Translations under genes and position numbers: made by a program
DNA from: Rozella allomycis CSF55
Lineage: Eukaryota
Direction: 5' to 3'
DNA: 20,000 bases
Assembly: GCA_000442015.1 (NCBI GenBank)
Contig: KE560678.1
Location: forward strand, 49,145 to 69,144
The notes under the pieces: model-generated
What the model saw: the letters and a program-made list of their open reading frames with translations, nothing else
What the model was told of the DNA's origin: nothing
Database searches by the model: none
In this document: positions 1 to 16,791 of the stretch, piece after piece
Position numbering within the stretch: position 1 is the stretch's first letter
Layout of the letters: the number at the start of each line of letters is the position of its first letter

Positions 1-497
1 TGAAGTTGAGGCCGCTTACCTTCCTGGAGACAGAACATATCGGTATTTTGGAAGAGCAAAAGAGCTTCCTGGAGTGAAAGAACTATTCGAAGCTCAGAAG
101 CCCGTTGAATTTAGAAAGACGAGATTTGAAATGATAAAAGCGATAGATCCAGACTATTTCGGATACCGAGACGAAGATGATGGCGTTTTGTTACACATTG
201 AAAGCGAATTTGAAAAGAATGGTATTTAATACAACAAATGTTTAACTAGAACTTATAGACGCATTTGAATTATGGAAGATGAAAACGGACGATGGATTTA
301 GCGTTAAAAGCCGGGAAATCGAGGAGCAATTTGAAAAAGAGTTGAATGAAAAAATTAGTGCATGGAATTTCCCGCCATTAAACACCGAAGTATGTTTAAC
401 ACACGACGTTCCAATACCCACACAAAAAGATGTTGAAGCCTATTTACTGGAACTTAAGAAACAAGAAATTCTGGAGAAATACACAAGCAAATCTTAA
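1..497 (+). CDS. ISY1: Pre-mRNA splicing factor ISY1 (NTC/Prp19 complex), 5'-partial; exons <1-221 and 250-497
   Basis: Frame from nt 2 reads YRYFGRAKELPGVKELFE...IDPDYFGYRDEDDGVLL, the Isy1 family motifs. C-terminus has VPIPTQKDVEAYLLELKKQEILEKY. GT-AG intron 222-249 (28 nt); an in-frame alternative acceptor lies at 258. Confidence 0.92.
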
Positions 498-557
498 TGT
501 AGAAATAAAACTTTTTTTATCAAGTTAAAAATTTTGATAGGATATTTTCGGTTTTTT

Positions 558-2447
558 ATGCTGATTTTGTATGCCACACAAACAGGGACTGCCCAATATG
601 TCGCAGAGAGAATAGCGAAAGACGCATACAGAAAGGCTGTAGATTTTAGAATAAGGGGAATGGACGAGATAGATTACGTAAAAAAACCAGATTTGTTATC
701 TTCTAGCTAGATTTACCAAATGAGAAGGTTATAATATTTGTGTGCTCAACTACTGGAGATGGCGAAGCTCCTGAACAAATGGTTAATCTATGGAAATTCC
801 TGCTCAAACGTTCACTACCTGGAGATTTCTTGGCTGACGTTTCTTGCTCAGTTTTTGGTCTCGGGGATTCTTCATACGCAAAGTAGACAAATATTTATAT
901 TATATCTAGATTCAATTATCCAGCAAAAAAGCTATGGAAAAGGCTTATTCAGCTTGGCGCCAAAATGATTGGAGATAGAGGTGACGGTGACGACCAGCAC
1001 CCACTTGGGTAATATTAACTTAATCGAATTAATTATAGGGTAGATGGTGCTTTTTTACCTTGGATAAAATCAGTCTGGGAAGGTTTGCGTAACGTGTTAC
1101 AGTGTGATGTCGACAAGCAAGAAATTACTTCGCTGCCATCAAAGTATAAATTTATTGAAAAAGAAGAATATAACACAGATATACTAAAGGATAATTCTGC
1201 TTTCGTTGTTAAAAATGAAAGAATTACAACTTTCGATCACTTTCAAGATATTCGTTTGATTACGCTTGACGGGGTATTTGATTACAACCCGGGAGATGTT
1301 GCTGCATTAAAGCCCCAGAATTTACCTGAATATGTTGAAAAGTTACTTACAAGACTTGATTGGCTAAAATATGCTGACACATCTTTTGAATTGACAATTA
1401 ACAGACCTGACGGATCAAATCATTTTCATAGCAAATGCTGGACGTTAAGAAAACTTTTGACAGAGGAATTAGATTGTTATTCAATTCCAAGGAAATCGTT
1501 TTTTGAAATCTTGGCTCAATTCTCACACGATGAAATGTTTACCGAGAGATTAAATCACTTTATATCTCCCGAAGGTTTAGTAAAATATACTAAATATCTT
1601 CATTAGGATGATTTCTTAGACTACAATCAAAGAATGAAAAAGACTGTTTTAGAAGTACTCGAGGACTTTCCTGGTTTAAAATTCCCTTACGAATATGCTT
1701 TTGACGCGTTTCCGTTAATTAAGAGTCGATGTTTCTCCATATCAAGCTGCATTAAAAATAGAATAGAGTTGGTAGTGGGGATTGTAAATTACAAAACCAA
1801 AATGAAAGTCCCCAGAGAAGGATTGTGCACTCGATGGCTTGCAACTCTAACACGTAAAGGCAGTTAAATAAATTAACAAGAAAATACCAAAGTAAATTTA
1901 AGCATCAAGAAAGGGTCATTCACGTTCTCAAACGGAGTTTTACCAACGACTCCAATTATACTTTGCTGTGCGGGAACCGGAATAGCCCCGATGAGGTCTT
2001 TGATTTACTACCTACTGATTCATCAAGATTTTAAACAAGAAATTTATCTCTTTTTCGGATGCAGAAATAAGAACAAAGACGACATATTCTATAAAGAATT
2101 CAATGAGTTATCAAATTCTTATCCGAATTTTACATACTTTTATGCATATTCAAGAGATCAAGTAAATATTGTTCTTGACATTTAATAGCCAAACAAAGTT
2201 TACATTCAAAATATCCTGCTTCAGAATCAATCTTTGATTTGGTCTCTAATAAATCACAAAAAAGCTTCCGTTTACATTTCTGGGTATAGAAAATGTTTTA
2301 TTTTTAAATAGAAACACAAGCCTGCCAAAAGAAATTAAGAAATCTTTACTCGAGATTTTCACAAACAACTTAAAAAATGATATTATCGCAAATCAACAAA
2401 TAGAGCAGCTAATAAATGAAAGAAAGATTCAATGGGAAGCTTGGTAG
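558..2447 (+). CDS. NDOR1: NADPH-dependent diflavin oxidoreductase 1 (Tah18), 8 exons
   Basis: ATG at 558: MLILYATQTGTAQYVAE (FMN loop), CSTTGDGEAP, VFGLGDSSYAKFNYPAKKL, GDDQHPLGVDG, RCFSISS, GLCTRWL, GTGIAPMRS, LFFGCRNKNKD, AYSRDQPNKVYIQ, terminal WEAW*. GT-AG introns 678-706, 883-909, 1009-1038, 1580-1606, 1854-1880, 2162-2188, 2284-2311. Confidence 0.93.
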
Positions 2448-2509
2448 AAATAAAAATAAAGATATAGGTTTATTAGCTGGCACCTCTGCTAAGCCCCTGT
2501 ACCCTTGTC

Positions 2510-3943
2510 ATGAAAATTATTCTATTATTCACCACGTGGTTAGGCTTAATCGCTTCAAATGAGATAAGTTATGATTTTTCTCAAATCCCAAAATGTCACG
2601 AAAATGATTTCAAAATAATTGAATCATTTCAGGGTTCACGTCATTATCAGGTACTTCAGAAAGCTATTCATAATCCTTCCGGCAGCTTAGCCTTGATTAA
2701 ATATTATTCTTTAAGTAACTCAGAGGCATCAAAGAGACATGTAAAAGAATTTCAAAGAGAAATACGCGTCCATCACTATGTAAACTCACCCATGATTCAA
2801 AAGTTGATTTGCTATAATGAGATGATAACTCCTGGGAGAATGAATATTCTTTACTTTGCCGTTGAATATTTTGAAGGAGTTCTATTAGAAAAACAATTAC
2901 AGGCTGGACGTTTTACTATTAGTGAAACAATTGAACTCTTTTACAAAATTTTGGCTGGTGTTAAAAGCTTACACGCTAGCCTTTTGATCCATGGAAATCT
3001 CACACCTTCAAATATTTTGATTAAAGATGGTGTAATTAAGCTGATCAACTTTGAATATTCATCTGCGGAAAATGACTGGGATATAAATGATCACTCTGTA
3101 TCATCTCCTTACCATATTAAAGATCCTATCTTCACTCTGGCTACGGATCTGTACAGCATTGGCGTGATCATTTATGAAACCCACTTTTTGTCAACTGCTC
3201 CAGAAGCGTATTCTTTAGAAAGGAAAGCGAAAGAGAAGTACCCATCAAAAAGGGTTGAGAATGATGACAAACCATATTTTATGAATCAAAGAATTTTCAA
3301 TGCCCTCCTACCATTAATTCAAGTGAACTTGAAAAAGAGAATACTATTCCTTCTACCCAAAAATTCTGATGATTTAAACAAAAATTTGTTTAATGAAATT
3401 GATTGCAAGGCTATGTCAATGAATGAAGTTTTCAGCTCAAACGCCGTTCTCGATTTATTTGTTTCAAAGTATCCATATGAGCAGTTAAAGGAATACTTGG
3501 GATCAGTGACTGAAGAGCACATAAATCTAATTGCTACGAAACGGGGGAAAACTTTATATCTCGAGAATAGATTGTTGGATCTAAAACAAAAAGAAGAGAA
3601 ATTGAATTTAAAGTCGCGTGAAGTCGAATCTTCCTCTGAGACTCTTAAGGAAAAGATGCAAGCATATGAAACGGCTAAAAAGAACATTTTCAAGCAATTC
3701 TATGGACTTGAAGAAATGAAACTTGACGTTGTAAATGAAGCTAGTAGATTAGCCAGCTTAGTGGAAGAGAGAAATACGTTAGACGATTTTGTAGATAATT
3801 TGAAAATAGAAATCGGAAGAGCCAAGGAGGACTATTCAATGTTTATAATGGCTTTTGAGAAAAAAATGGAGGACCTGGAGGAACTTAAAATGATTGTGGA
3901 AAAGGCCGTGGAGAAAACTCATCAAAAATTGATTGATGTTTAA
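2510..3943 (+). CDS. Predicted secreted pseudokinase: signal peptide, degenerate protein kinase domain, C-terminal coiled coil
   Basis: 477-aa single ORF. N-terminus MKIILLFTTWLGLIAS. Kinase subdomains ALIK, FQREI, AVEYFEG, IHGNLTPSNILI, IKLINFE, TDLYSIGVIIYE. E/K-rich helical tail from about aa 350. Confidence 0.8.
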   Translation: MKIILLFTTWLGLIASNEISYDFSQIPKCHENDFKIIESFQGSRHYQVLQKAIHNPSGSLALIKYYSLSNSEASKRHVKEFQREIRVHHYVNSPMIQKLICYNEMITPGRMNILYFAVEYFEGVLLEKQLQAGRFTISETIELFYKILAGVKSLHASLLIHGNLTPSNILIKDGVIKLINFEYSSAENDWDINDHSVSSPYHIKDPIFTLATDLYSIGVIIYETHFLSTAPEAYSLERKAKEKYPSKRVENDDKPYFMNQRIFNALLPLIQVNLKKRILFLLPKNSDDLNKNLFNEIDCKAMSMNEVFSSNAVLDLFVSKYPYEQLKEYLGSVTEEHINLIATKRGKTLYLENRLLDLKQKEEKLNLKSREVESSSETLKEKMQAYETAKKNIFKQFYGLEEMKLDVVNEASRLASLVEERNTLDDFVDNLKIEIGRAKEDYSMFIMAFEKKMEDLEELKMIVEKAVEKTHQKLIDV

Positions 3944-4143
3944 AATGTAAAGTTAATAAAGACCTTTTCAATATGATAAATTTTTAGATCTAAAAGATAC
4001 GTGAAAATTACTGCATATCAGTTACTTAATGACTATTGAATTGTTGATGTTAAAAGGTCACAGACGGTGTGATTGAAAATTCAATCAGATCTATTTATAG
4101 GAATTTCAAGAATTTAAAAATGAGTACGCGACCACGCCACACG

Positions 4144-4764
4144 ATGAAAATTTCTACCACCTTCGTTGCTGCTTTACTCGCATCCTTTGCTGCTGCTGAA
4201 AGTACTCTTCTTCCTGAAACCATTTCTTTGAGAATATATGGAGGACCTGACTGTTCTGGTGTACCTATTGTCATCCTTCACGGCGAAAGTGCTGGTGCTC
4301 AGGTTGATTTACCAGACAACGCTTGTGTTGCTCCATCTGCTATTACTGATATCGTTTCCAAGTCTTTCAGTAACGAGTTTGCTGGTATTTTCGGACAAGA
4401 AGATGTTAAAAGCGCCCTTCAAGAGATTTCTAAATTTAGAATTGAAATTGTTCGCCAGAAACCATTGAAAGAAAGCGTAAGTAAACTTGTGAAATACACC
4501 CGTGTGATTTCCAAGGACAAGTCTATTCAAGTCCTTGTTCAAGACAACTTGTGCCTCTCCATCATGGGAACTTCTATGAAGATGTCTTGCGCTGAAGGCA
4601 AAATTACAACTCAACAATTTAACGTTGAAAACTGCAAAGGAAAAGCTGATGTAGTTGACAAGGATTCCATGAATATGTTGTCAACAATGTTTGGTTTCGA
4701 TGTGCAATGTGGATTCAACGTACACGGAGTTGCTGGAACCGCTTCTATTGAAGAGCTACCATAA
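4144..4764 (+). CDS. Predicted secreted 206-aa orphan protein with 6 Cys
   Basis: ATG at 4144 gives a typical signal peptide MKISTTFVAALLASFAAA. Uninterrupted ORF rich in GCT/GTT/TTC/AAC codons. No family recognised. Confidence 0.75.
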   Translation: MKISTTFVAALLASFAAAESTLLPETISLRIYGGPDCSGVPIVILHGESAGAQVDLPDNACVAPSAITDIVSKSFSNEFAGIFGQEDVKSALQEISKFRIEIVRQKPLKESVSKLVKYTRVISKDKSIQVLVQDNLCLSIMGTSMKMSCAEGKITTQQFNVENCKGKADVVDKDSMNMLSTMFGFDVQCGFNVHGVAGTASIEELP

Positions 4765-4802
4765 AAATTTATTTATAATGCTATTTAAGACTTTATTTTA
4801 CT

Positions 4803-6203
4803 TTATTTGAAAATATTTGAAAACATTTCTTTAGATTTTTTGTATCGTTTGTTTTCTAGCTCCAACAATTTCTTTCGCTCCCTTGCAATATCCGAAACAT
4901 AGTCATTTTTCACAACATTTGGACAACTTTCTAATAATTTTTCAAACGCATTTAGGTCGTCCTTGGCAGAATCCAAGTCTCGCCCTTGAGAAATATACGC
5001 TTGAGCTCTTCTAAATAATGCTTTGAGGTTAGACGGATCTTTTTTAAGAATAATATCTGCCTGAGAAATCGCTACTTTATAATCGCCCAATTTTAGTGCG
5101 CAAAGAATGTAGTTCAATCTGCAAGAGACTTGGAACCCCTCAATCCAATCTTTTGAAACACAAGAAGTCGGATCAGATTCTACTAAAGGATCAGACACAT
5201 TATCTTTTCCTCTGGCGATTTCTGAAAACGATGGAAGCATTAGCAGATTTTCAATGTAGTCTAACACGAGTGCAAATTTAATAGACGCTTCCTTAAATTT
5301 ACCCGACTTTACTAAAGAAACTCCTTCGTCTTTAAGCTGAGGTATCTTTTTAACTTTTTCAATAGCCGACAGTGTAAATGGGTGCTCATTCTCTTCAGTT
5401 ATAAATTCAAGACATTCAATAGTAAACTCCAAAGGCATCCCGTCCAATTGATAAAGCTCTGAATAAGTGTCCAAATCTTCCATGAATCCGGCAGCGCAAG
5501 TTTTCTTTCCACCATTCTTCTTGTCTCTTATCTTCCTTAAAGCGATTTCTAGTTGAATATATCCTTTAGACAGAGAATTAGACAATACGAATACAGATTT
5601 TTCTCCGACATTCATAGTTTTTACTATTTGTTCTAATGGCGGAAAGGAGAATGATTTATTCAAAAGGAGCTCGAAAGGTTCACCCGACTCTTTTGTGTCT
5701 GTTATTACATTTATCTTATTGCACACTGATAAAAAATCAGTTTGTTGCCCAGTTTTGCAAGATTCTCCCTCATGTGTTGGCTTGCAGGAGCTAGCATGAT
5801 GATTACAATTCACATGTGCATGGCAATCTTTAGCATCATGTTTCTTCTCATCATCAGACTCATGCTCATCATCACCTTCAGTAATTTTCCGTTCCTTATG
5901 TTTATTAATGTCCACCCCCATAAATTTACTTAACAACTCTGAAGGGCTATCTTCTGATATCCGTTCACATTCATTTTTGACTTTGTTACAAATATTTTCA
6001 AAATTTTCTTTATTATCTATGTGAAGGGGTATGGTAGAAACTCGCAGATGCATCTTCACTTTAGATGCTGACCATTTGGTGTCGCAAATCTTTCCAGGTT
6101 TGAAGATTAATTTGTACATGTCGTTGTTTATTTTGGAAAAGTCTGTTAAATCTAAAGTTGGATGGGATAATTTTGAAATCCAGTCTGTTTGTGTTGAACT
6201 CAT
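4803..6203 (-). CDS. AIP: AIP/AIPL1-like co-chaperone (FKBP-like domain plus TPR repeats) with a long insertion
   Basis: KLIFKPG, SKVKMHLRV, VITDTKESGEPFELLLNKSFSFPPLEQIVKTMNVGEKSVF, PLEFTIECL and EKVKKIPQLKDEG match the AIP layout. TPR segments RLNYILCALKLGDY and NLKALFRRAQAY. Confidence 0.8.
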   Translation of the reverse strand: MSSTQTDWISKLSHPTLDLTDFSKINNDMYKLIFKPGKICDTKWSASKVKMHLRVSTIPLHIDNKENFENICNKVKNECERISEDSPSELLSKFMGVDINKHKERKITEGDDEHESDDEKKHDAKDCHAHVNCNHHASSCKPTHEGESCKTGQQTDFLSVCNKINVITDTKESGEPFELLLNKSFSFPPLEQIVKTMNVGEKSVFVLSNSLSKGYIQLEIALRKIRDKKNGGKKTCAAGFMEDLDTYSELYQLDGMPLEFTIECLEFITEENEHPFTLSAIEKVKKIPQLKDEGVSLVKSGKFKEASIKFALVLDYIENLLMLPSFSEIARGKDNVSDPLVESDPTSCVSKDWIEGFQVSCRLNYILCALKLGDYKVAISQADIILKKDPSNLKALFRRAQAYISQGRDLDSAKDDLNAFEKLLESCPNVVKNDYVSDIARERKKLLELENKRYKKSKEMFSNIFK

Positions 6204-6224
6204 TTAGAATTTTTCGGAAATCAT

Positions 6225-8635
6225 ATGAATGTGTTTCACGAAGATGTAGTGTGTTTAAAGGATAAGATTGATGTAAAAGGTGTTGTTTCTGATACTATAT
6301 TTGAAAATCAATCTATTCCTAAAGATTGTGTTGAAGTGTCATGGCATCAAGAACCTTATCCCGTGGAAATTATCGATAAGAAAGATTTGATAGTCACTAA
6401 TAGATATCCTTTTTGTCTTATATTATTTTAAGATTGATTTTCCTTAATTTCAAATCGTTTTTACCGAGTGACATTGTTATGGATCCAAACGATCCTAGGA
6501 AGCTGCAGGGACTTGTAGTAAATACTAGAAGTGTATTGCATGTTCAAAACTGTTTTGATGATTCAAAGAAAGAATATGTTGTTGGAGATGATATGGTAGA
6601 TATTGAAAAGGAATTTCTTGTTCAGGAAGGATCGTGGGTCAAATATAATGACTGGATAGGAATTGTTATTGAAGTATGATAATGGTAAATCTAATAATTT
6701 AGGTGAAAACTGACTTTTATATTGCATTCAGCAATGGTGCAGTTTGCATACCAAAAGACTCAACAAAGTGTAGGCCGGCAAATGAAATAGACGAAGACTC
6801 TTATTGGTATGAAAGACATTTACCAGGACAAGTTATGATTTCAAAAAGATCTAATTTTGAAAAGGGAAAGTGGATTAAAGGATCATTTAAGAGTGCATCA
6901 CATCATTGGAAAGGGGTACTAATGAAGACGGCCCATAAGAGTGTTTCGGTGATATGGAAAACAGTTAATCCAATTTTGCCCAATGATTCTGAAATTCTAT
7001 CGTCTCCAAAAACTTTGTATGGCAATGAATTGAATAATTTGGAGGTATTTGACACATTTTTATTATCTAAAATAAACATTGGATCAGTTGTGAAACTAAA
7101 GAAAGAAGCACTTGAAAACTTTAAAGATTTACCGATTGCCTGTAGCGATGAAAATTTCATGAACTATTGGATGGTTGTCGATCAAAAGACAACCGTAGAT
7201 GTGCATTGGCAGGATGGGAAAATAGAAAATGAAATTTCTTCAGAGAAAATAATTCCAATTTTAGAGGCTGGTGAAACTGATTTGAGTGCCACTGAATTTG
7301 TTAAAAAGAATGAATCTGATAAATTAGGCATTTTGCAAAGTTTTGATCCTAATGAAAGAACTTGTACAGTAGGGTGGATCTCGAGTAACAGTGGAATGGT
7401 TGAAGGTGAATTGGAAGAATTAAGTATTTACGATGTTAAGGCAGACCCACAAGTTTCATTTTACATTATGAACATTGTGTTAAAAATAGATTCGATCCAA
7501 GACCCGAATAGCTGGGCTGGTGAAATAAGAAATATTTTGCCGAATGGATTAATTGAAGTTAGATGGACGACGGGGGTTACAGAAAATATTCCTTTCAAAC
7601 ATTTACATTTTGTTTATGATAGTTCTCAAGTTGATGACGAAGATCTTGAAGATATTTGTTATCCCCATGTAGATGACGATTGGATGACAATTGCAAGTGA
7701 CGAGAATTCGGAAATAGATCAACAAGAAGAAAAAATATCTTTTGTAGATCTAGATCTAACTAAAAAGTTTAATATTTTGAGTATTAATGGAGATAACAAA
7801 GATTCTTTTAGCATTGATGAAAATGCACCATTAGATCATCTATTTTTACACAAAACAATTCAATTTGCATCAAACGCAGCCAATGTGGCCATAAGGAAAG
7901 ATTTTAAACTTTTAAAGGAATTACCTGAAAACATTTACGTTACAACTTTTGAAGATAGAATAGATCTATTTAGGTCTATCATAATTGGATCCAAAGGTAC
8001 CGTTTATGAATACGCAATGTTTCTATTTGATATTCAGCTTTCATCTAAACATCCATTTGAACCTCCATCCGCGTATTACCATTGTTGGACTGATGGGCTA
8101 GGAAAATTAAATCCAAATCTCTATGAAAATGGAAATAGTAATTTTCATTTTTATTTTTTATCTAGTTTGTTTATCTCTACTTGGAACATGGGAAGGATTT
8201 GAAAAGGAAACTTGGTCTTCAAATTCTTCCATTTACCAATTATTACTTTCTCTTCAAGCTCTTGTTCTCGTCAGAGAACCTTACTACAATGAAGCGGGCT
8301 ACACAAAATATCAGGGAACTGATGAAGGTCAAGTAGCTTCCATTCGATACTTGGAAAACGCTTTTCTGGGTTCCGTTAAATCAATTTTACATATCTTAAA
8401 TCATCCACCATCTAATTATGAGGCTCTGGTTAAATTCTACTATATAGATTGCGGAAATTTAGAAAAAGTCATTCAAAGGTGCGAAGCATTAGTACATTCC
8501 TCACAAGAACACGAAGAAAACATTTGTTCTTGGTATGATTCCACCAATCAAGATCAATTCCCTCTTAAAAGAATTTCAAAAGGTGGCGCGAAATTGTTAA
8601 CCCCCATCATAGAAACCTTGAAATCTTTTATTTAA
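6225..8635 (+). CDS. UBE2O: E2/E3 hybrid ubiquitin-conjugating enzyme UBE2O-like; exons 6225-6403, 6454-6673, 6703-8137, 8166-8635
   Basis: N-terminal conserved regions (NRSFLPSDIV after splicing, GSWVKYNDWIGIV, TTVDVHWQDG). UBC domain EDRIDLFRSIIIG..GTVYE, LNPNLYENGNICLSLLGTW (active Cys restored by intron 8138-8165), QALVLVREPYYNEAG. Intron 6674-6702 is GT-AG; intron 1 is non-canonical. Confidence 0.9.
6404..6453 (+). other. Putative U12-type (minor spliceosome) intron with AT-AA termini, 50 nt
   Basis: Starts ATATCCTTT (U12 donor consensus). TTTTCCTTAAT at 6438-6448 matches the U12 branch consensus. No nearby GT-AG pair joins the two frames. Splicing 6403 to 6454 gives DLIVTNRSFLPSDIV. 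Confidence 0.7.
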
Positions 8636-8822
8636 TAAAATAACAGTTTCAATTTTTTTGACAACATAGTTTATAGTACATGCAAATCTAAGCAAACTCT
8701 ATACACTCAACTCCAACAATTGATAACTTTGAGATTTATTATAGTTAAAGATTTTTATTCCAAAAATTGAAGCACTTGTTGACCCTTCCCAGTTGCCAAG
8801 CTTTTGAAAAATACAAAACACA

Positions 8823-10010
8823 ATGGCAGCAACAGAGGAAAGGTTAGCATTCATCGCCGAGTGGTTTGATAAAAGTGCTGATTTAACAAGAGTTTTTCAT
8901 TTTCTCTATTTTCCAACAGATCAGTCCATTGAACTCGTAAGTATAGTTCCAACAAATGTTAGGTGGACGACAAGACAAAGAAAATATTCTTAAAGAGAGC
9001 GCCATATCCAAACATCACTATCGATCAGGTATATCTGGGCGCTACAATCACCGTCTATTCAAGACCAATGACTTTGGTAAATTTTGGAGACGAACGGACG
9101 AGGAAAGTGTTCAAAACAGAATCATTGCAGTATAAAATATCTATATTATTGACAATTAGTGAATTCTTGGTGATAGCCGCATCCAAAGATAATAAGAAAT
9201 GTTTGGATGAAATTTACTCAATATGTCACACTAACAATACCCAAATCATTTCCATAGATCTAGTCAGCGCGTACATTCTCCCACAAAATTTGAGAGAAAA
9301 ATTGCCTAGAGGAAATGTCATAGTAGCTAAATTAAAAGGGGATCCAAGAAATGTTTGTGAGAATGCAAACATAGTACTGCCAGACAGAGAACAATGTGAA
9401 AAAGTAATTCCTATTTATCTTATTTAAATGATAATTAATGAACTTGCTTCAGCAAATTTTGATCTTCACGAGAATGCAAGTTTGTGCATCATCAAACCGC
9501 ATTCCATGATTCAAGGTATTCATATACGTTGATTAAAATATGGTCGGTGCCATGAAATAATTAAGGAAATCTCCGATGATTTCAATATATTGGCTATAAA
9601 AACTGTTCGATTGACTTTAGCAGAGGCCGAAGAATTTATGGAAGTTTATCAAAATGTTCTTCCTGAATATCATGTAAAAATTATGAAATTGCTTTAGTAG
9701 CTTTTAATAAACGAGCTCATCGCTGGAAATTGTGTGGCAATGTAGGTTTCTAGTCTGCAATTAATATAGTCAAGCACGTCCGTTAAATGGTGCTAATGCA
9801 GTGACATCATTACGAGAATATGCTGGTCCTTATGACCCTGAAATCGCCAAGCTAATAAAACCAGATTCTCTACGCGCTAGATTTGGAAACGATAAAATTC
9901 AAAACGCAATTCATTGTACAGACTTGATTGATGATGCCCCGCTTGAGGTAAGTTGATGCGTCGAGTATTTATAGATTCAATATATATTTCAAATAATAAA
10001 GGCCCAATAA
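8823..10010 (+). CDS. NME7: Nucleoside diphosphate kinase 7 (DM10 domain, degenerate NDK-A, NDK-B); axonemal/centrosomal protein, 8 exons
   Basis: DM10: ERLAFIAEWFD..FHFLYFPTDQSIEL|VDDKTKKIFLKR..VYLGATITVYSR. NDK-B: SLCIIKPH, AEEFMEVY, LREYAGPYDPEIAKLIKPDSLRARFG..IQNAIHCTDL..APLEIQYIF. Introns 8937-8962, 9130-9159 (in-frame, stop-free), 9404-9430 (GT-TG), 9516-9542 (GT-TG), 9674-9700, 9742-9769, 9948-9974. Confidence 0.9.
9404..9430 (+). other. Putative 27-nt GT-TG intron (NME7 intron 3)
   Basis: gtaattcctatttatcttatttaaatg. Removes an in-frame TAA. The first downstream AG (9451-9452) is out of frame. Confidence 0.55.
9516..9542 (+). other. Putative 27-nt GT-TG intron (NME7 intron 4)
   Basis: gtattcatatacgttgattaaaatatg. 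Removes an in-frame TGA and restores KPHSMIQGRCHEII. The next AG (9564-9565) is out of frame. Confidence 0.7.
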
Positions 10011-10022
10011 TCTGTGTATTTT

Positions 10023-11411
10023 TTATTTAAATAATGATTTTGTTGATCCTGATAGCTTTCGATTCAATCTATCCCAATGAAACGTGCAATTTTCAAAACT
10101 TAATTCTTCTAAACATGAAATGGAAAGTTCAAAAATATCACGATCATCTTGTGAAGCGAATTTCGCAGATTTTAACAAGTTTCTCTGAATCAGTACTACC
10201 TTTTTGAGTCTTTCTTTGTCAACATAATCTTTTTCTTTGTGGATGAAATCATTAACACTTGACTTGACAATGTAAATAACTCAAATTACTTGTATATCGC
10301 CGACCGTAGCTTGAATAGTTCCTTTAATTCGGTCACTCCTTTGTTTTAAGTTATTTTTAATGTTAATCCAGTCCCACACCTGCATGCTTTCGTTTTTCTT
10401 CAATTGGATATCCAGTAAACTTGGAATTTGTTCCAAGGGTGTTAGTTGTAATTGCTTTGAGCGATTGATGAGAGAATATATATCATCGATATCAGGATAT
10501 TCCATCAAAATCTTTATTCCATCAATCCCTTGTTCCAAAACTATTAGTCAAAAAGCAATACCTTACGCCTTTCCTTGACGTTAAATAACATCGTTAGACA
10601 AATGTACGGAAGAATTTCAAAATTTGATACAAAAATTTCATTCCATAAAGGAATAATCTGATCTAATCGAAACTCCCTCGAAAAAAGTAACCTAATCCAA
10701 CGACAATTGCAATAACAAAACCAATCTTACATGAAGTAAACGCTAGGATCTAATTTTAGTGTTTCATGAATGTATTCATAATATTCTTCATCTATTTTTC
10801 GTAACAGGTGCTCATGCACTTTTTCTGACAACGTTGATAATCCTGCCCCCTTTAATCAATTTTGAGAATCAAACATTACAAAATAGAATATCTTGACTTT
10901 TTCTATTAATTTCTCATAAATCTTATAAACATTATATGTGGAGGGATAGTTTGTTTGTTCTGAAAGCCAAAAGACCACCGCAAGTAGTTCATGCATTCCC
11001 TGGCGGTATTCAGTTCCCGTTAGTTTGTAATAACAGTAAAGTAATTTGGTCAATGATTCAGCAACTCTTCTATCTCTAAAATAGGGATTGTCAGGAAAAC
11101 TTGTATTATATTGCAGTTTTAAACATACATTCTGTCAACGTCCTTTTCAATTAGTTTTACAGTTTCTTCTTCCTTAAAATGTAAAGACCACGAACTCTTT
11201 GACATAAAATTAATTATTCTACTCCCTTCTTTAATGATAATGGATGATCTTGCTCCGTGTTTTCTTCTAATTTAATTTGTGAACTGATTTGAGTGAAAAA
11301 AACATTTTCTGGATCCTCAATAAGAATGTAATTGAAAATTTTCTGTTATAAAAGTGAGAACAATATTCTTACTGCCCAACCTTCAAAATAGCCTTGATAA
11401 AAAGTGGACAT
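10023..11411 (-). CDS. TBC1D5: TBC-domain Rab GTPase-activating protein, TBC1D5-like, 8 exons
   Basis: DHPLS...SSWSLHF, catalytic IEKDVDRIFP and YRQGMHELLA, YFIRWIRLLFSREF, LMEYP. Minus-strand introns 11372-11343, 11222-11197, 11128-11100, 10879-10850, 10730-10704 (GT-TG), 10566-10541, 10289-10263. The start codon is less certain. Confidence 0.82.
10704..10730 (-). other. Putative 27-nt GT-TG intron (TBC gene intron 5)
   Basis: Minus strand gtaagattggttttgttattgcaattg. Splicing gives AT|T CGT TGG ATT AGG = IRWIRLLFSREF, the conserved TBC1D5-family motif. Confidence 0.72.
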
Positions 11412-11474
11412 GAAATTTGATAAATAGGAAATTGGAGACTGAATCACCTATGAAAAAAGAATTGACATTTGTAA

Positions 11475-12768
11475 CTATTTTAATTTATTTGCTAGATTAT
11501 TTGGAGTCCATGGGCCCAACGAATCTTTGGCATAAAAGTCCATAGGGTAAACTGACTGCCATTCTATTTGATCCAAACATACATTCATTTCAAACGGAGT
11601 TAATAATGGCTTAGGATACGAATATCCCCAGTCAATCGATAATCTGGGACATGCGACTTGAACAAAAGTGTCAATGTCTTTAAATTGGGTGATTTTGCTG
11701 GCAAAAATTTCAGACATTAATATTCTGGTATATTTCTTTCCACAATCTTTTAACTTTTTCTCGATCGTTTCTAGGACCCTCGGATTACCTTGGCGTCCTA
11801 AAGTGCCCAAGATCAAACCCACAGACTTTGCCTGCCTCGCCTTAGTTATGGCTTCTTTTCTTAGTTTATGCATTTCCTCAATTTCATAATATTCTCTTGT
11901 CATTGTTTTCCCGTAGGGATCGTATTTGTATGCACACTTGGATGGATTGGCAATCATAATTGCCTCAAGATGGAACCTACCATCCCCCAGATATACAATA
12001 GCGTCAGTATCTTTGTCTAGCTTTGGTGCTGTGCAACCAAGAATTTCTCCTGGTGAAAGTGGTTTAATTTGCGGAATAAATATTTTTGGAAAGTCACTTA
12101 AAGCATTCTTTGCTGCATGAAGCGAAGTTAAAAACTGCACAGTGGACACAAAACAAATCTTTTGATCTGGATGAAAAAATGTCCTAATATGTTCGACAAA
12201 ATGTGAAATGTCAAACTTAATATCTACGAAAACGTACATAGTTTTTATCTTTGTAACATCAATAGGAACTATTTAAATTTTAATGTAAAGAAATACCTAA
12301 ACATGAGTGCCCATAATGAACCATAAAGTCACATCCTAAAGCAGTTGCTGTAAAATCATCAATGCAACAAGCACCATATGTGACATCACCCATAATAACA
12401 GTTTCCACTTGAGCAAATCTTAATCATTGTTTCATTGAATATGTACTTTTCCAATATATCAGATATTATGCAGGCATACATTAATAATCCTTCAGGAAAC
12501 TGAAGTGCCACTCTTTTAGACTGATTCTTTTTGCACATCCATATAGTTTTATGAATTTCAAAATTATAGTTTTTTGGCATCTATATTTTATTAAAGAATC
12601 TCAATCTCTTACCTGGGCGATCCAGTCATTCAGCTCTTTGTTTTCCAGAATGTCATCTGGAATCTGATTGAGTTTTCTAAAAGTTTTAACATTTCCTAAT
12701 ATTTAGATAATAATAAGAATACTTTTTGGATCATTCTTTTTCTGAACCAGAGCTGTTTCCTCCAACAT
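11475..12768 (-). CDS. DPH1: Diphthamide biosynthesis protein 1, 5 exons
   Basis: [107 protein letters not shown] introns 12722-12696, 12612-12581, 12446-12419, 12296-12269. Confidence 0.96.
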
Positions 12769-12903
12769 TTGTCAACTTAGCCACTAAAACTTTTCGAATT
12801 CAATTTGATGGCAATGATATATTTATATGAGAATGAAAATAATTAATAAAATTCGTATATGCATTACTTGTGAAAAGCGAATCCTGAAATTTACAATTTT
12901 TCA

Positions 12904-13596
12904 ATGAATGCTACCCTGCTTCAACAAGCGTGGTTCTTTTGCCACTCCACGTTCATCTCACTATATGTTGTCTCCTTAATATCCCCTGTTTTTGGATTAA
13001 GTAGCCAGTCTATGCAACTATTTGCTACTCTTTTTGCAACATTAGGATATATGATAGTACTGTACCAAACACATATGGTAACACCTTTTAACAAGACAAC
13101 AATAATGAAGAATGAAAACACACTATATTTTATCCTTCTTTTGAATATGTTAATGACAAGAACTAATTTCGGTAGCATAGTTTTTCCATTAATGGTTTAT
13201 TCAATATTTCACATTGCAGGATATCTTATTAGCGGTCCATACGCTATCAGTATGAATATGAAATCTCGCCTTCAAAATTTGGTCAGTATCCAGAGCCCAA
13301 TAATAATAATGGCTGCAAAACTAGAGGTCGTTTCAATTGCCTCCTTACTTGTGACATATCTTAGTGGCAAGACTCCATTGTATTTTTTCATCTTTTACGT
13401 GTGGTTTATCATTAACAGATACTTTTCGTCTGCAATAATGAAGACTGCATTCTCAGAGTTTCGAGTGGGTGCCAATCAAATAGCTTGCAGTTCGAAATGC
13501 CCAAAAATATTATCGAATCTAATACAATCTGGAATCAACGCTTTATCTCGATTTGGAACAACTTTGACGCATGTATCTGCAAACAAAAGTCAATGA
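12904..13596 (+). CDS. TMEM33: TMEM33/Pom33/Per33 family ER/nuclear-envelope membrane protein
   Basis: Multi-pass hydrophobic protein with AWFFCH, NENTLYF, PLMVYSIFHIAGY, FIINRY..S, and KCPKIL near the C-terminus. Confidence 0.8.
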   Translation: MNATLLQQAWFFCHSTFISLYVVSLISPVFGLSSQSMQLFATLFATLGYMIVLYQTHMVTPFNKTTIMKNENTLYFILLLNMLMTRTNFGSIVFPLMVYSIFHIAGYLISGPYAISMNMKSRLQNLVSIQSPIIIMAAKLEVVSIASLLVTYLSGKTPLYFFIFYVWFIINRYFSSAIMKTAFSEFRVGANQIACSSKCPKILSNLIQSGINALSRFGTTLTHVSANKSQ

Positions 13597-13700
13597 ACAA
13601 TAATAAATAAGTATAACTTTCAACTTGTCACACTTTCATTTTTATATTGCTTTATGACAGATCCATAAGAAGAAATTACCCAAAAGAAATTTCCAGAATA

Positions 13701-15429
13701 ATGAAACTCGACGCTTGTTTGGCTGCATTAACTGTTTTATCTTCGATCAATGTAATTGTATATGTTTAAATAAGAAAGGCTGAGGCGTTATTTGTTGAAA
13801 AGTTTGAATCAAAAAGCTTGTTGGGAGACAAATGGGTACCATCAGAAGCAAAGAAAGATTCCGGTGATGTTTTGGCGTATGATGGTCAATGGGAAATAGA
13901 GGAGGCTTCTGTGTTGAAAGCATTTGACGATGATTTTGGGCTTGTTGTAAAATCTCCAGCCAGACTTCATGGTATAACAAGAAAGTTTGACAAAGCTATC
14001 CAAATTGAAGATGAAAAGCCTTTCGTTGTTCAATATGAAGTGAAATTACAAAAAAGTCTTGAATGTGGAGGGGCTTATTTGAAACTGTTGACTGCAGGAG
14101 AAGAAGAATTCAATCCTACTCAGTTCCATGACAAAACACCTTATACAATAATGTTTGGACCTGACAAGTGCGGTTCTTCTAATAAAGTAATGAGACTAAA
14201 AAGAATTGAAAGGTTCATTTTATTTTTCGTCACAAGAACCCTGTGACTGGCCAAATTGAAGAAAAGGCTCTAAATAATCCACCGACTGCTAAAATCACAG
14301 AAAAATCTGTTCTTTATACTTTAATTGTTAAACCTGACAATAAATTTGAAATTCGCATTGACAGTGAAAAAGTTAGGGAAGGGTCTCTCCTTGAAGACTT
14401 TACACCATCAGTGATACCACCTAAAGAGATTGAAGACCCTAATGACACAAAGCCAGAAGATTGGGATGAAAGAGAAAAGTAAGTTTGACAGCAAGTCTAT
14501 TTTTAGAATTCCAGATGAAAGTGCAGTGAAACCAGAAGACTGGGATGAAGAAGCACCAAAGGAAATTGAAGATATTAATGATACAAAGCCTTCAGATTGG
14601 CTTGACGATGAACCTTTATTGATTCCTGATGTCGATGCAGCAAAGCCCGATGATTGGAATGAAGAAGAAGATGGAAAATGGGAGGCTCCATTAGTTGAAA
14701 ATCCTAAATGTAATTCTGGAAAATGTGGCGTTTGGCAACGAAGAAAAATCTCAAACCCTAATTACAGGGGTAAATGGAAAAGACCCTTGATAAGCAATCC
14801 AAATTACAAAGGAAAATGGTCACCAAAGAAAATACCAAATCCTGAATATTTTGAAGACGATAAAATATATAAATTCACCCCAATGGTAACATTCATGCAT
14901 GTAATTGAAATAGACTGCTGTTGGTTTTGAACTTTGGACCATGCAGAATGATATTCTATTTGACAACATTTTCATTTCAGATTCAATTCAAGATGCAGAA
15001 AAATTTTCTGACGAAACTTTTAAATTGAAATCTAAAGAAGAAGCTTTGAAAGAACCAAAGGAAGAAGAATCAACTGTGGAAGATAAACAAGAAAGTTCGT
15101 TTGAAGATTCTTCTTCATTTGGACCTTACCTGGATGCTTTAAAGAACATCGATATCTCTAAAATTGTTGAATTGTTGAAAACTGAGCCAATGACGTTTAT
15201 TCCATTCTTTGCTGCAGTTTTCTTTCCAATTCTTATTGTTTATTTCGTAAAATGGGCCATTTCAAACCCAGTTTCAGATTCAAAAGAGAAAATAGAAAGT
15301 GACGATGGATTTCAAGAAGAACAAAATGATGAAGTTGAAACAAACGAAATTAAAACTCAAGAAGAAAAGGAAGACAATTCTCTCAATCAAGTTAACGCCC
15401 AATCTGATGAATCAACTGATAATGAATAA
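13701..15429 (+). CDS. CANX: Calnexin, 5 exons
   Basis: Signal peptide [54 protein letters not shown]-domain repeats KPEDWDE and GKWxxPxIxNPxY, [16 protein letters not shown], one TM helix and an acidic tail. GT-AG introns 13752-13778, 14187-14212, 14479-14506, 14886-14913. Confidence 0.96.
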
Positions 15430-15516
15430 AATATTTAATTTGCTTAAAGTATTCAACTTTGATGGAACCTTCACTCTAAGCCTATCACACTTGTAATTTC
15501 AAAATCATAAATTTAT

Positions 15517-16103
15517 TTACAAAACTTTTTGCGATTCTCTTTGCTCAAGATCATGATATGCCAACACAAAATTACTGAACTCTAAAAGAATGTTCGCCGC
15601 CCCATCTTCCTCTTTCGAAAAATCTCCGACTGATGACGGTGGACTCAATGGAATTGGTATTTGGTGACTCTTGATATGTTCTTTCAAATTGTCCGACCTC
15701 GAAAACGCCTTGAAACATTCTTTGCATTCAAATGGCTTTTCCCCAGAATGGATTCGTAAATGTCGCTTCAAATGTCCAGATCTCGAAAATACTCTATGAC
15801 AATCAGGCTCTGAACACGCAAAAACACGCTTAACTGGTATGGTTGAATCTGGCTGTTTCTGTTTTCTAAAATGTGTTCGGATATGTCTCTTTAATTCATC
15901 TGACCTAGAAAATCTCTTCTGACATTCTTCATATTCGCAAACGTACGGTTTCTCACCTAGTTTAGATTATACCCCACACTCCTACCTGTGTGCACTCGGA
16001 TGTGTCTTGTTAAATGTTCCAAGCGGTTAAAAGCTTTTCCACATCCTTCGTAACTGCATAAATATGGTCGAGATGGTTTTGCTCGCTTCGTTTCTTCGCA
16101 CAT
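15517..16103 (-). CDS. C2H2 zinc-finger transcription factor with four fingers; first pair CreA/Mig1-like; exons 16103-15986 and 15956-15517
   Basis: [57 protein letters not shown] ... [57 protein letters not shown] intron 15985-15957 (29 nt) lies in the TGEKP linker. Confidence 0.88.
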
Positions 16104-16485
16104 CGGTTACCTCTTATCGGGTGGCTGTTACCCCATGAGGATATCGCCCCAAGTCCTCGTGATTTTGGGCGATAACGAATTTCTAAAATTTCTTTGTATT
16201 GCTATCACCTTGTTAAGATACATTTCTCTTTCTTTATCTCTATCTCTTCATAATTCCTCGTTATTACGAGTAAAGCAATTTCAGGTTTTGTTTTGGCTAA
16301 GGGTACCGTCACCAAGTCGTTGGAAAGTTCTAGATTCCACTTTACATCCCGAAAGCTATATAATTAAATCAATTAGATTACTTAAAATTTATTATTTTTG
16401 CACGATATGCACGATACGCCGAATATAACAATAGATCATTTCTAGTCAATTTATTAATGACCGAAATCTTGTTTATTAAAAAAGG

Positions 16486-16550
16486 TATTTGAATGAGTTT
16501 CCTGATCATGCTGAAAGNTATTCGAATGAGTTTCCTGATCATGCTGAAAG
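16486..16550. repeat. 32-bp direct repeat (1 mismatch) flanking a single N; probable scaffold-join artefact
   Basis: tatt(t/c)gaatgagtttcctgatcatgctgaaag at 16486-16517 and 16519-16550, separated only by N at 16518. Confidence 0.85.
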
Positions 16551-16791
16551 TTGAAGGATGCAAACAGCGTCGAATTTTAGTCACCCTTTTCAAGAGGCAA
16601 CTATGAATACCAATGCGAACCTTTAAAGGCGTTAAAGATTGAATGCAAAACAACTGCGAGAATTCATTCATTATGGCCAGAAAGGCCGGAATGTGAATTA
16701 GGAGTTCCAAGAATTGGTTAAAATTACTAAATAAAGTTGTTTAGTGATAAAATGTTTCTATTAATTTGGCTTTCTAAATTAGGCAGCACGC

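Follow-up and report, generated by a model that had tools for sequence, protein, structure and literature searches.

The AG that ends U2-type introns is among the most invariant signals of eukaryotic genes. In yeast, the 3' splice site is chosen after branching, in the second step of splicing. The last G of the intron is critical, the base before it (position -2) is partly tolerant in mutant backgrounds, and PRP8 alleles suppress 3' splice-site mutations. Structurally, the first and last G of the intron pair with each other. Among non-AG 3' splice sites, only TG has been validated in human U2 introns (Szafranski et al., 2007; PMC2374985). For Rozella allomycis, introns of about 30 nt that introduce premature stops have been reported (PMC6349667). 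Here we describe a 20,000-nt stretch of the R. allomycis CSF55 genome (contig KE560678.1, positions 49,145 to 69,144, forward strand; hereafter the window) in which three 27-nt introns appear to end in TG. Two of them lie in an NDK7-like kinase gene (introns A and B) and one in a TBC RabGAP gene (intron C). A candidate U12-type intron in a UBE2O-like gene is a separate matter and is treated separately.

The three GTA...TG elements may well be ordinary tiny U2-type introns that are spliced at TG, a reading to which we give about even weight. Judged by comparison with related proteins, only the TG ends preserve the conserved protein sequence at introns B and C.

Introns of the window

The window has a GC content of about 34%, the standard genetic code, long open frames and extreme gene density. 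A 499-residue exon (6703-8199) matches the NCBI protein ROZALSC1DRAFT_28547 [Rozella allomycis CSF55] at 100% identity. Gene models were rebuilt independently with a script that extends frames to a stop and scores candidate introns, followed by hand curation. Positions 1-16400 were also compared with three DNA runs (X2, X6 and X7) and one RNA run (X9). X2 comes from a different study and sample than the presumed source of the window.

The rebuilt models contain 38 introns: 34 GT-AG, three GT-TG and one AT-AA. A first-pass annotation of this DNA had reconstructed 39 introns with a modal length of 27 nt; the mode stands and the count becomes 38. The coordinates that it gave for four non-AG introns (9404-9430, 9516-9542, 10730-10704 and 6404-6453) were recovered exactly. 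The 37 GT introns all measure 26-32 nt (five of 26, 13 of 27, nine of 28, four of 29, five of 30 and one of 32 nt), and this tight range fits the earlier proposal that the 3' site is chosen by distance. Without exception, these 37 introns begin with GTA and have G as their final base. The last three bases of the AG introns are TAG (22), AAG (10) or CAG (2), and position -2, which is A or T, is the only variable acceptor base in the 37. GC content across all 38 introns is 0.14-0.41.

Except at position -2, the TG introns have the local pattern: a GTA start, the modal length of 27 nt, a GC content of 0.19-0.30 and an in-frame stop. Their donors (GTAAT, GTATT and GTAAG) are all among the common pentamers of the window. 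Their 3' ends are ATG, ATG and TTG, and so lack the AG by which a U2-type intron is recognized. Each of the three contains an in-frame stop, so that retention would truncate the protein. These introns are not a chance pattern, as they interrupt conserved frames and match the local introns save at -2.

Two other identities were considered for the TG introns and rejected. Both the donors and the branch regions depart from the U12 consensus, and none of the three can be moved to an AG end with the same product.

Introns A and B in the NDK7-like gene

The NDK7-like kinase gene, which encodes an NDK7 N-terminal PH domain (identified by Pfam), lies at 8823-10010 on the plus strand. Intron A (9404..9430, plus strand, 27 nt, phase 0, GC 0.19) contains an in-frame TAA and starts with GTAAT, the commonest donor pentamer in the window. 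Its removal preserves the frame; the next AG, 22 nt downstream, gives a frameshift. An in-frame alternative with AG is available (9396-9452, 57 nt, GTG...CAG), and it would be the sole GTG donor and the sole GT intron longer than 32 nt. Homology is uninformative at this position because the linker varies in length among relatives.

Intron B (9516..9542, plus strand, 27 nt, phase 1, GC 0.22) has an in-frame TGA. We identified no GT-AG candidate for intron B that restores the frame, and the best AG candidates add only four codons. The exon before this intron ends with the K-P-H motif of NDK, and in the following exon the match to the Pfam NDK profile begins at the third residue, at profile position 18. 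If exactly 27 nt are removed, the two exons continue the profile without a gap, and the junction is likewise gapless against 28 of 31 aligned NDK7 relatives. The model was also aligned with 32 NDK7-like proteins of 300-400 residues from a representative search. K, P and H are conserved in 28, 31 and 29 of these relatives, respectively, and only three of the 32 have extra residues at the intron B junction. Exon 4 (9431..9515, plus strand), which lies between the two TG introns, codes for the beginning of the second NDK domain with its K-P-H motif. Its GC content of 0.353 is exon-like (0.336-0.416 in the other exons of the gene).

The gene matches two public proteins, EPZ36057.1 and RKP19676.1, both from R. 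allomycis CSF55. Both of these models use a 162-nt GT-AG intron (9404-9565) and so skip exon 4. Both also retain the in-frame, stop-free 30-nt intron at 9130-9159 and read into the last intron (9948-9974), and hence end early. As far as protein comparison can tell, homology contradicts both models. Since they keep 9130-9159 and read into the last intron, they seem to be ab initio predictions that are not based on transcripts.

In two canonical introns, TTTAGTAG and ATAAGAAAG (at 9674-9700 and 13752-13778), an AG lies 3-4 nt upstream of the AG that is used. In both introns it must be bypassed for the frame to be kept; in the former, use of the upstream AG would also leave an in-frame TAG. These bypassed AGs fit a minimum spacing between branch point and 3' end.

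Intron C in the TBC gene

The TBC RabGAP gene (identified by Pfam) lies at 11411-10023 on the minus strand. Its intron C (10704..10730, minus strand, 27 nt, GTAAG...TG, phase 2, GC 0.30) has an in-frame TAA directly after the donor. A canonical alternative of 39 nt (10730-10692) is also in frame and uses an AG 12 nt further on. The segment between the TG and this AG (10692..10703, minus strand) encodes R-W-I-R, the four residues with which a conserved TBC helix opens, and its GC content of 0.417 is exon-like. With R-W-I-R included, the Pfam RabGAP-TBC score is 20.2 bits (profile 169-212); without these residues it is 14.6 bits (174-212), a difference of 5.6 bits. R-W-I-R also aligns with the RW that opens the corresponding segment of the Gyp1p chains 1fkm_A and 2g77_A, a match that is weak when taken alone (E about 1). 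A protein search with the TBC exon at longer lengths found no match.

Of the coding differences between X2 and the window in the TBC gene, 10 of 16 are synonymous, and downstream of intron C the count is five of nine. By this comparison, purifying selection acts on the gene both before and after intron C. The synonymous excess shows that the downstream TBC frame is used, and does not separate the 27-nt form from the 39-nt form.

The convergent NDK7-like and TBC genes have stop codons only 12 nt apart (10010-10023), and their untranslated regions must therefore overlap.

Presence of the TG ends in genomic DNA

In X2, a single contig spans positions 1-11083 at a depth of 589 and departs from the window by 19 substitutions and a 7-nt deletion at 1932. 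None of the four non-AG acceptors carries an insertion or deletion. Positions are listed for 18 of the 19 substitutions, and none of these is at an acceptor; the position of the nineteenth is not displayed. X6 covers 122-8566, including the AT intron of the UBE2O-like gene, with three listed differences, all elsewhere. Over 10474-10818 its coverage is gapless, albeit at a depth of 2.5 and with five unlisted substitutions. Two independent data sets thus carry the four non-AG ends in their genomic DNA. The first-pass annotation had asked that mutation, editing or consensus error be excluded; because X2 has no indel at the acceptors, assembly loss of an A from TAG is excluded.

The differences between X2 and the window are clustered (10191-10305 and 11313-12575), for example with 10 substitutions within 115 nt. 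Besides those in the TBC gene, all 12 coding differences in DPH1 are synonymous and all five in TMEM33 are non-synonymous. The X2 contigs fork into two paths at 11054-11209 and at 14868-14982, which suggests two haplotypes. The RNA run X9, a metatranscriptome, gave no contigs over 1-16400, a result that has no bearing on expression either way.

Proposed splicing at TG and its possible mechanism

If the introns are spliced at TG, the -2 position of the 3' splice site would be T instead of A and TG would be the productive site. At intron lengths of about 27 nt, the branch point would lie only a few bases from the 3' end. The first step of splicing could then proceed without the need for an AG. 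In the second step, a site at the permitted distance from the branch point would be docked mainly via the invariant last G, with U at -2 tolerated, probably at lower efficiency. We infer both the splicing at TG and the manner of it from these considerations.

The canonical alternatives fit the local pattern poorly, which favours this reading. They measure 57, 162 and 39 nt, compared with a local range of 26-32 nt, one has a GTG donor (seen in 0 of 37), and two remove conserved residues. Further, all three of the non-AG GT introns end in TG. Were acceptors to mutate at random to any of the six dinucleotides one base away from AG, we estimate that this outcome would have a probability of about (1/6)^3, which suggests that selection tolerates TG specifically. 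A scan of 17,126 nt of sense-strand exon for decoys (GTA start, 26-30 nt, GC no more than 0.32, inside exons) found two with AG ends, four with TG, 13 with GA and eight with GT. This hints that AG and TG are both avoided at exon decoys, maybe as a guard against cryptic introns, and the numbers are small. When frame-bridging candidates were counted by 3' dinucleotide, each real intron yielded many frame-compatible neighbours.

A broader proposal is more tentative. R. allomycis might naturally splice a percent-level class of tiny U2-type introns at a TG that is the sole productive site, with the site set by a fixed short branch-point distance and the terminal G, and with the check for A at -2 relaxed. 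Under this proposal, public annotations restricted to GT-AG would systematically mis-model such genes, as they appear to do for the NDK7-like gene here.

Several observations weigh against splicing at TG. AG ends 34 of the 37 GT introns and is strongly preferred; the description of AG as dispensable in the first-pass annotation was thus overstated. G ends all 37. An AG lies downstream of each TG (22, 23 and 12 nt away for introns A, B and C), and use of those AGs is conceivable. The four GTA...TG decoys within exons, of 26-30 nt and low GC content, are presumably unspliced, and TG alone therefore cannot define a site. Human TG sites act only as alternatives with an AG within 28 nt, and human AG-to-TG mutations activate neighbouring AGs and not the TG (PMC2374985). 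X2 differs from the window by only about 0.2% over 1-11083, with no differences in the NDK7-like gene, and is thus too close for the conservation of TG between data sets to say much on its age. One X2 substitution is unlisted. Seven DNA runs and no RNA run cover the locus. Finally, the first NDK domain (9160-9403; about 81 residues in one exon) is poorly conserved compared with the aligned relatives, and a good Pfam NDK match is found only in the second domain (E 1.8e-9 for the segment of the catalytic region). With its first NDK domain shortened and degenerate, the NDK7-like gene could be decaying.

Alternative explanations

The TGs may be dead acceptors, with nearby AGs used in their place. 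In the NDK7-like gene the result would be a 162-nt intron (9404-9565) and the loss of exon 4; in the TBC gene the intron would measure 39 nt (10730-10692). The proteins would then carry small deletions, and the skipped parts would look like coding sequence only as a leftover of recent mutation. The two alternatives have GT-AG ends and preserve the frame, and the human AG-to-TG mutants behave in this way (PMC2374985). After the loss of one exon 4 acceptor, losing the second as well would, we reason, be neutral. Both public NDK7-like annotations use the 162-nt form, but these models appear to rest on no transcript, given their treatment of 9130-9159 and 9948-9974. The skipped NDK7 part, with its GC content of 0.353, also holds the K-P-H motif that is kept in 28, 31 and 29 of 32 relatives, and the four skipped TBC residues contribute 5.6 bits to the match with the family profile. 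Neither 162 nor 39 nt falls within the 26-32 nt of all 37 GT introns, and three independent losses that all lead to TG would be unlikely. We consider this explanation somewhat unlikely.

Quite improbable, in our estimation, is that the genes are inactive or poorly expressed, with introns retained or mis-spliced to frameshifting AGs (9452 and 9565) and the transcripts degraded. In this case the NDK7-like gene, and possibly the TBC gene, would be young pseudogenes in a reduced parasite genome. Intron retention gives stops, splicing to the first AG beyond intron A or B would cause a frameshift, and the NDK7-like gene combines two defects with a first NDK domain that is already degenerate. Besides the three acceptors, however, the frames are intact over eight exons in each gene, with 11 canonical introns between them. 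In the second NDK domain, the segment of the catalytic region has its Pfam NDK match at 1.8e-9, and the 10 synonymous differences of 16 in the TBC gene also speak against decay. Moreover, Rozella has swimming zoospores, which should need ciliary proteins.

The remaining explanation, a sequence or assembly error in which the true genome reads TAG and one A was dropped per site, draws on the fact, noted in the first-pass annotation and borne out by the tabulated introns, that each TG end is one inserted A away from the common TAG end, but it is barely tenable and already largely refuted, given that X2 (a separate study and sample, at a depth of 589) has no indel in 1-11083 other than the 7-nt deletion at 1932 and that three random errors at the same acceptor base are implausible.

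The candidate AT intron and proposed first exon of the UBE2O-like gene

The gene for a UBE2O-like E2 enzyme (identified by Pfam) lies at 6225-8635 on the plus strand. Its proposed first exon (6225..6403, plus strand) is within a 77-codon open frame and is followed by a candidate U12-type (minor) intron (6404..6453, plus strand, 50 nt, GC 0.18) with an AA end. The donor ATATCCTTT at 6404-6412 fits the U12 5' consensus (A/G)TATCCTT, and the motif TTCCTTAAT at 6440-6448 fits the branch consensus TCCTTAA(C/T); we take these to be a U12-type donor and branch site. The donor motif alone is not significant (two found compared with 1.6 expected). The paired donor and branch motifs have one match in the window and none in 200 shuffles.

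The first-pass annotation called this an AT-AA intron. The location and the paired motifs hold up, while AA (6452-6453, 50 nt) proves to be only one of two ends that keep the frame, the other being AG at 6467-6468 (65 nt). The 15 nt in question (6454..6468, plus strand, GC 0.40) would be exon with the AA end and intron with the AG end, with the frame kept both ways. In U12-type introns, the optimal distance from the branch point to the 3' end is about 10-15 nt. Here the branch adenosine is 6-7 nt from the AA end (6453) and 21-22 nt from the AG end (6468), outside the optimum in either case. No frame-compatible end with a known terminal pair was identified between 6453 and 6468.

Protein comparisons did not favour either end. 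Alignment of the UBE2O N-terminus with five homologues showed no preference between AA and AG, the first 40 residues of exon 2 have no PDB match, and the whole of exon 2 aligns to the UBE2O chain 7yw1_A over its last 29 residues only (E 4.8, weak). There was no relevant Pfam match around the AA/AG choice, and leads from the Atlas all scored below 0.9. A conserved motif in UBE2O might favour the AA end, a consideration to which we give no weight. Exon 1 has no Pfam or PDB match. A language-model search with this exon gave sub-threshold small beta-barrel families with scores of 0.84-0.88, which are a lead only. A metagenome scan with the UBE2O exon found no relative.

We think it unlikely that there is no U12 intron here and that the gene either starts at the Met codon at 6479 or uses a 41-nt GTG...TAG intron (6363-6403), which would join the upstream frame to a frame reading through 6404-6453. 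The public UBE2O-like protein (P0121) does start at 6479, with MDPNDPRK, and omits 6225..6403. The lack of a Pfam or PDB match for exon 1 is in keeping with that start. So is the position of its ATG (6225), since the start codons of the UBE2O-like gene and of the divergent TPR gene (ATG at 6203) would be only 21 nt apart if exon 1 is real. The 41-nt GT-AG candidate, for its part, keeps a 91-codon frame. However, its GTG donor is found in 0 of 37 GT introns, its length is outside 26-32 nt, and its use would mean translation of AT-rich, intron-like sequence (GC 0.18). The 77-codon open frame upstream argues for the U12-type intron, as do the paired motifs (0 of 200 shuffles), which are placed exactly where a change of frame is needed.

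The terminal pairs known for U12-type introns include AT-AC, AT-AA, AT-AG and AT-AT (PMC8280824, which cites Levine & Durbin 2001 and Dietrich et al. 2005). Because variable 3' ends are thus already established for the U12 class, the AT intron is no evidence for a relaxed major spliceosome. In the literature searched, supplements being outside the search, we found no paper that links Rozella with U12-type or minor introns.

Other features of the window

A single N at 16518 is flanked by a tandem duplication of about 32 nt (16486-16550) and may be an assembly join. On the minus strand, the region 16128-16740, upstream of a C2H2 zinc-finger gene, contains pieces that resemble open reading frames and have no homology. 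It also contains two 26-nt intron-like elements (16381-16356 and 16208-16183, minus strand), and a 27-nt GTA...CC element (16131-16105, minus strand) would keep the frame into the zinc-finger open reading frame. This region could represent introns of a 5' untranslated region, a separate gene or noise. Scanning the window for Rfam families and tRNA genes gave no match, and a protein search with the calnexin exon gave distant matches only. A metagenome scan with the DPH1 exon found 60 loci at 38-81% identity; tblastn of the NDK7, TBC and UBE2O models on those 60 loci identified none of these genes.

Implications

The TG introns are a real and testable lead, and probably a variant of TG 3' splice sites that are already known, with splicing deduced from sequence. 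If the reading is correct, a culturable organism would have TG as the only productive acceptor in several ordinary introns. It would then provide a natural system for 3' splice-site selection and proofreading in the second step, and would show how far the 3' check can relax at introns of about 27 nt. There are also consequences for annotation. The public NDK7-like models delete a conserved exon to keep GT-AG, and the public UBE2O-like model lacks a probable first exon that a U12-type intron would separate from the rest of the gene. The Rozella genome serves as an outgroup to microsporidia, and its annotation may be biased wherever such introns occur.

Comparison with known systems

The AT intron resembles U12 A-type (AT-AN) introns in its donor and branch, ATATCCTTT and TTCCTTAAT, which match what we take as the consensus of that class. 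It differs in its branch-to-end distance (6-7 or 21-22 nt, as opposed to about 10-15 nt) and in its length of only 50 or 65 nt. AT-AA and AT-AG are both among the terminal pairs given for U12-type introns (PMC8280824).

The TG introns resemble the human TG-AG tandems in that both are U2-type GT introns with a TG end, which is the only non-AG class (Szafranski et al., 2007; PMC2374985). As in those tandems, an AG lies within 28 nt downstream (12, 22 and 23 nt in Rozella). By our estimate, an AG within 28 nt is mostly expected by chance, so this is a weak likeness. The human TG is never the sole 3' splice site in that study, whereas at intron B the TG is the sole end that keeps both the frame and the conserved sequence, and at intron C it is the better end. 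The Rozella introns are 27 nt long, and the local frequency of three in 37 contrasts with a tiny fraction in humans. A tandem has two viable ends, but the downstream AGs of introns A and B shift the frame and only intron C has an in-frame partner.

Among the papers searched, we found no non-AG intron class for Rozella. With the ultra-short introns of R. allomycis, Paramecium and nucleomorphs, the introns of the window share narrow lengths, AT-richness and in-frame stops. To our knowledge, those introns have been described as strictly GT-AG, whereas the introns of the window include a GT-TG class. PRP8 suppression in yeast offers a mechanistic parallel, with a site near the branch point, a critical terminal G and tolerance at -2. 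In yeast this tolerance is a mutant phenotype of the laboratory; in Rozella it would be the natural state of some genes.

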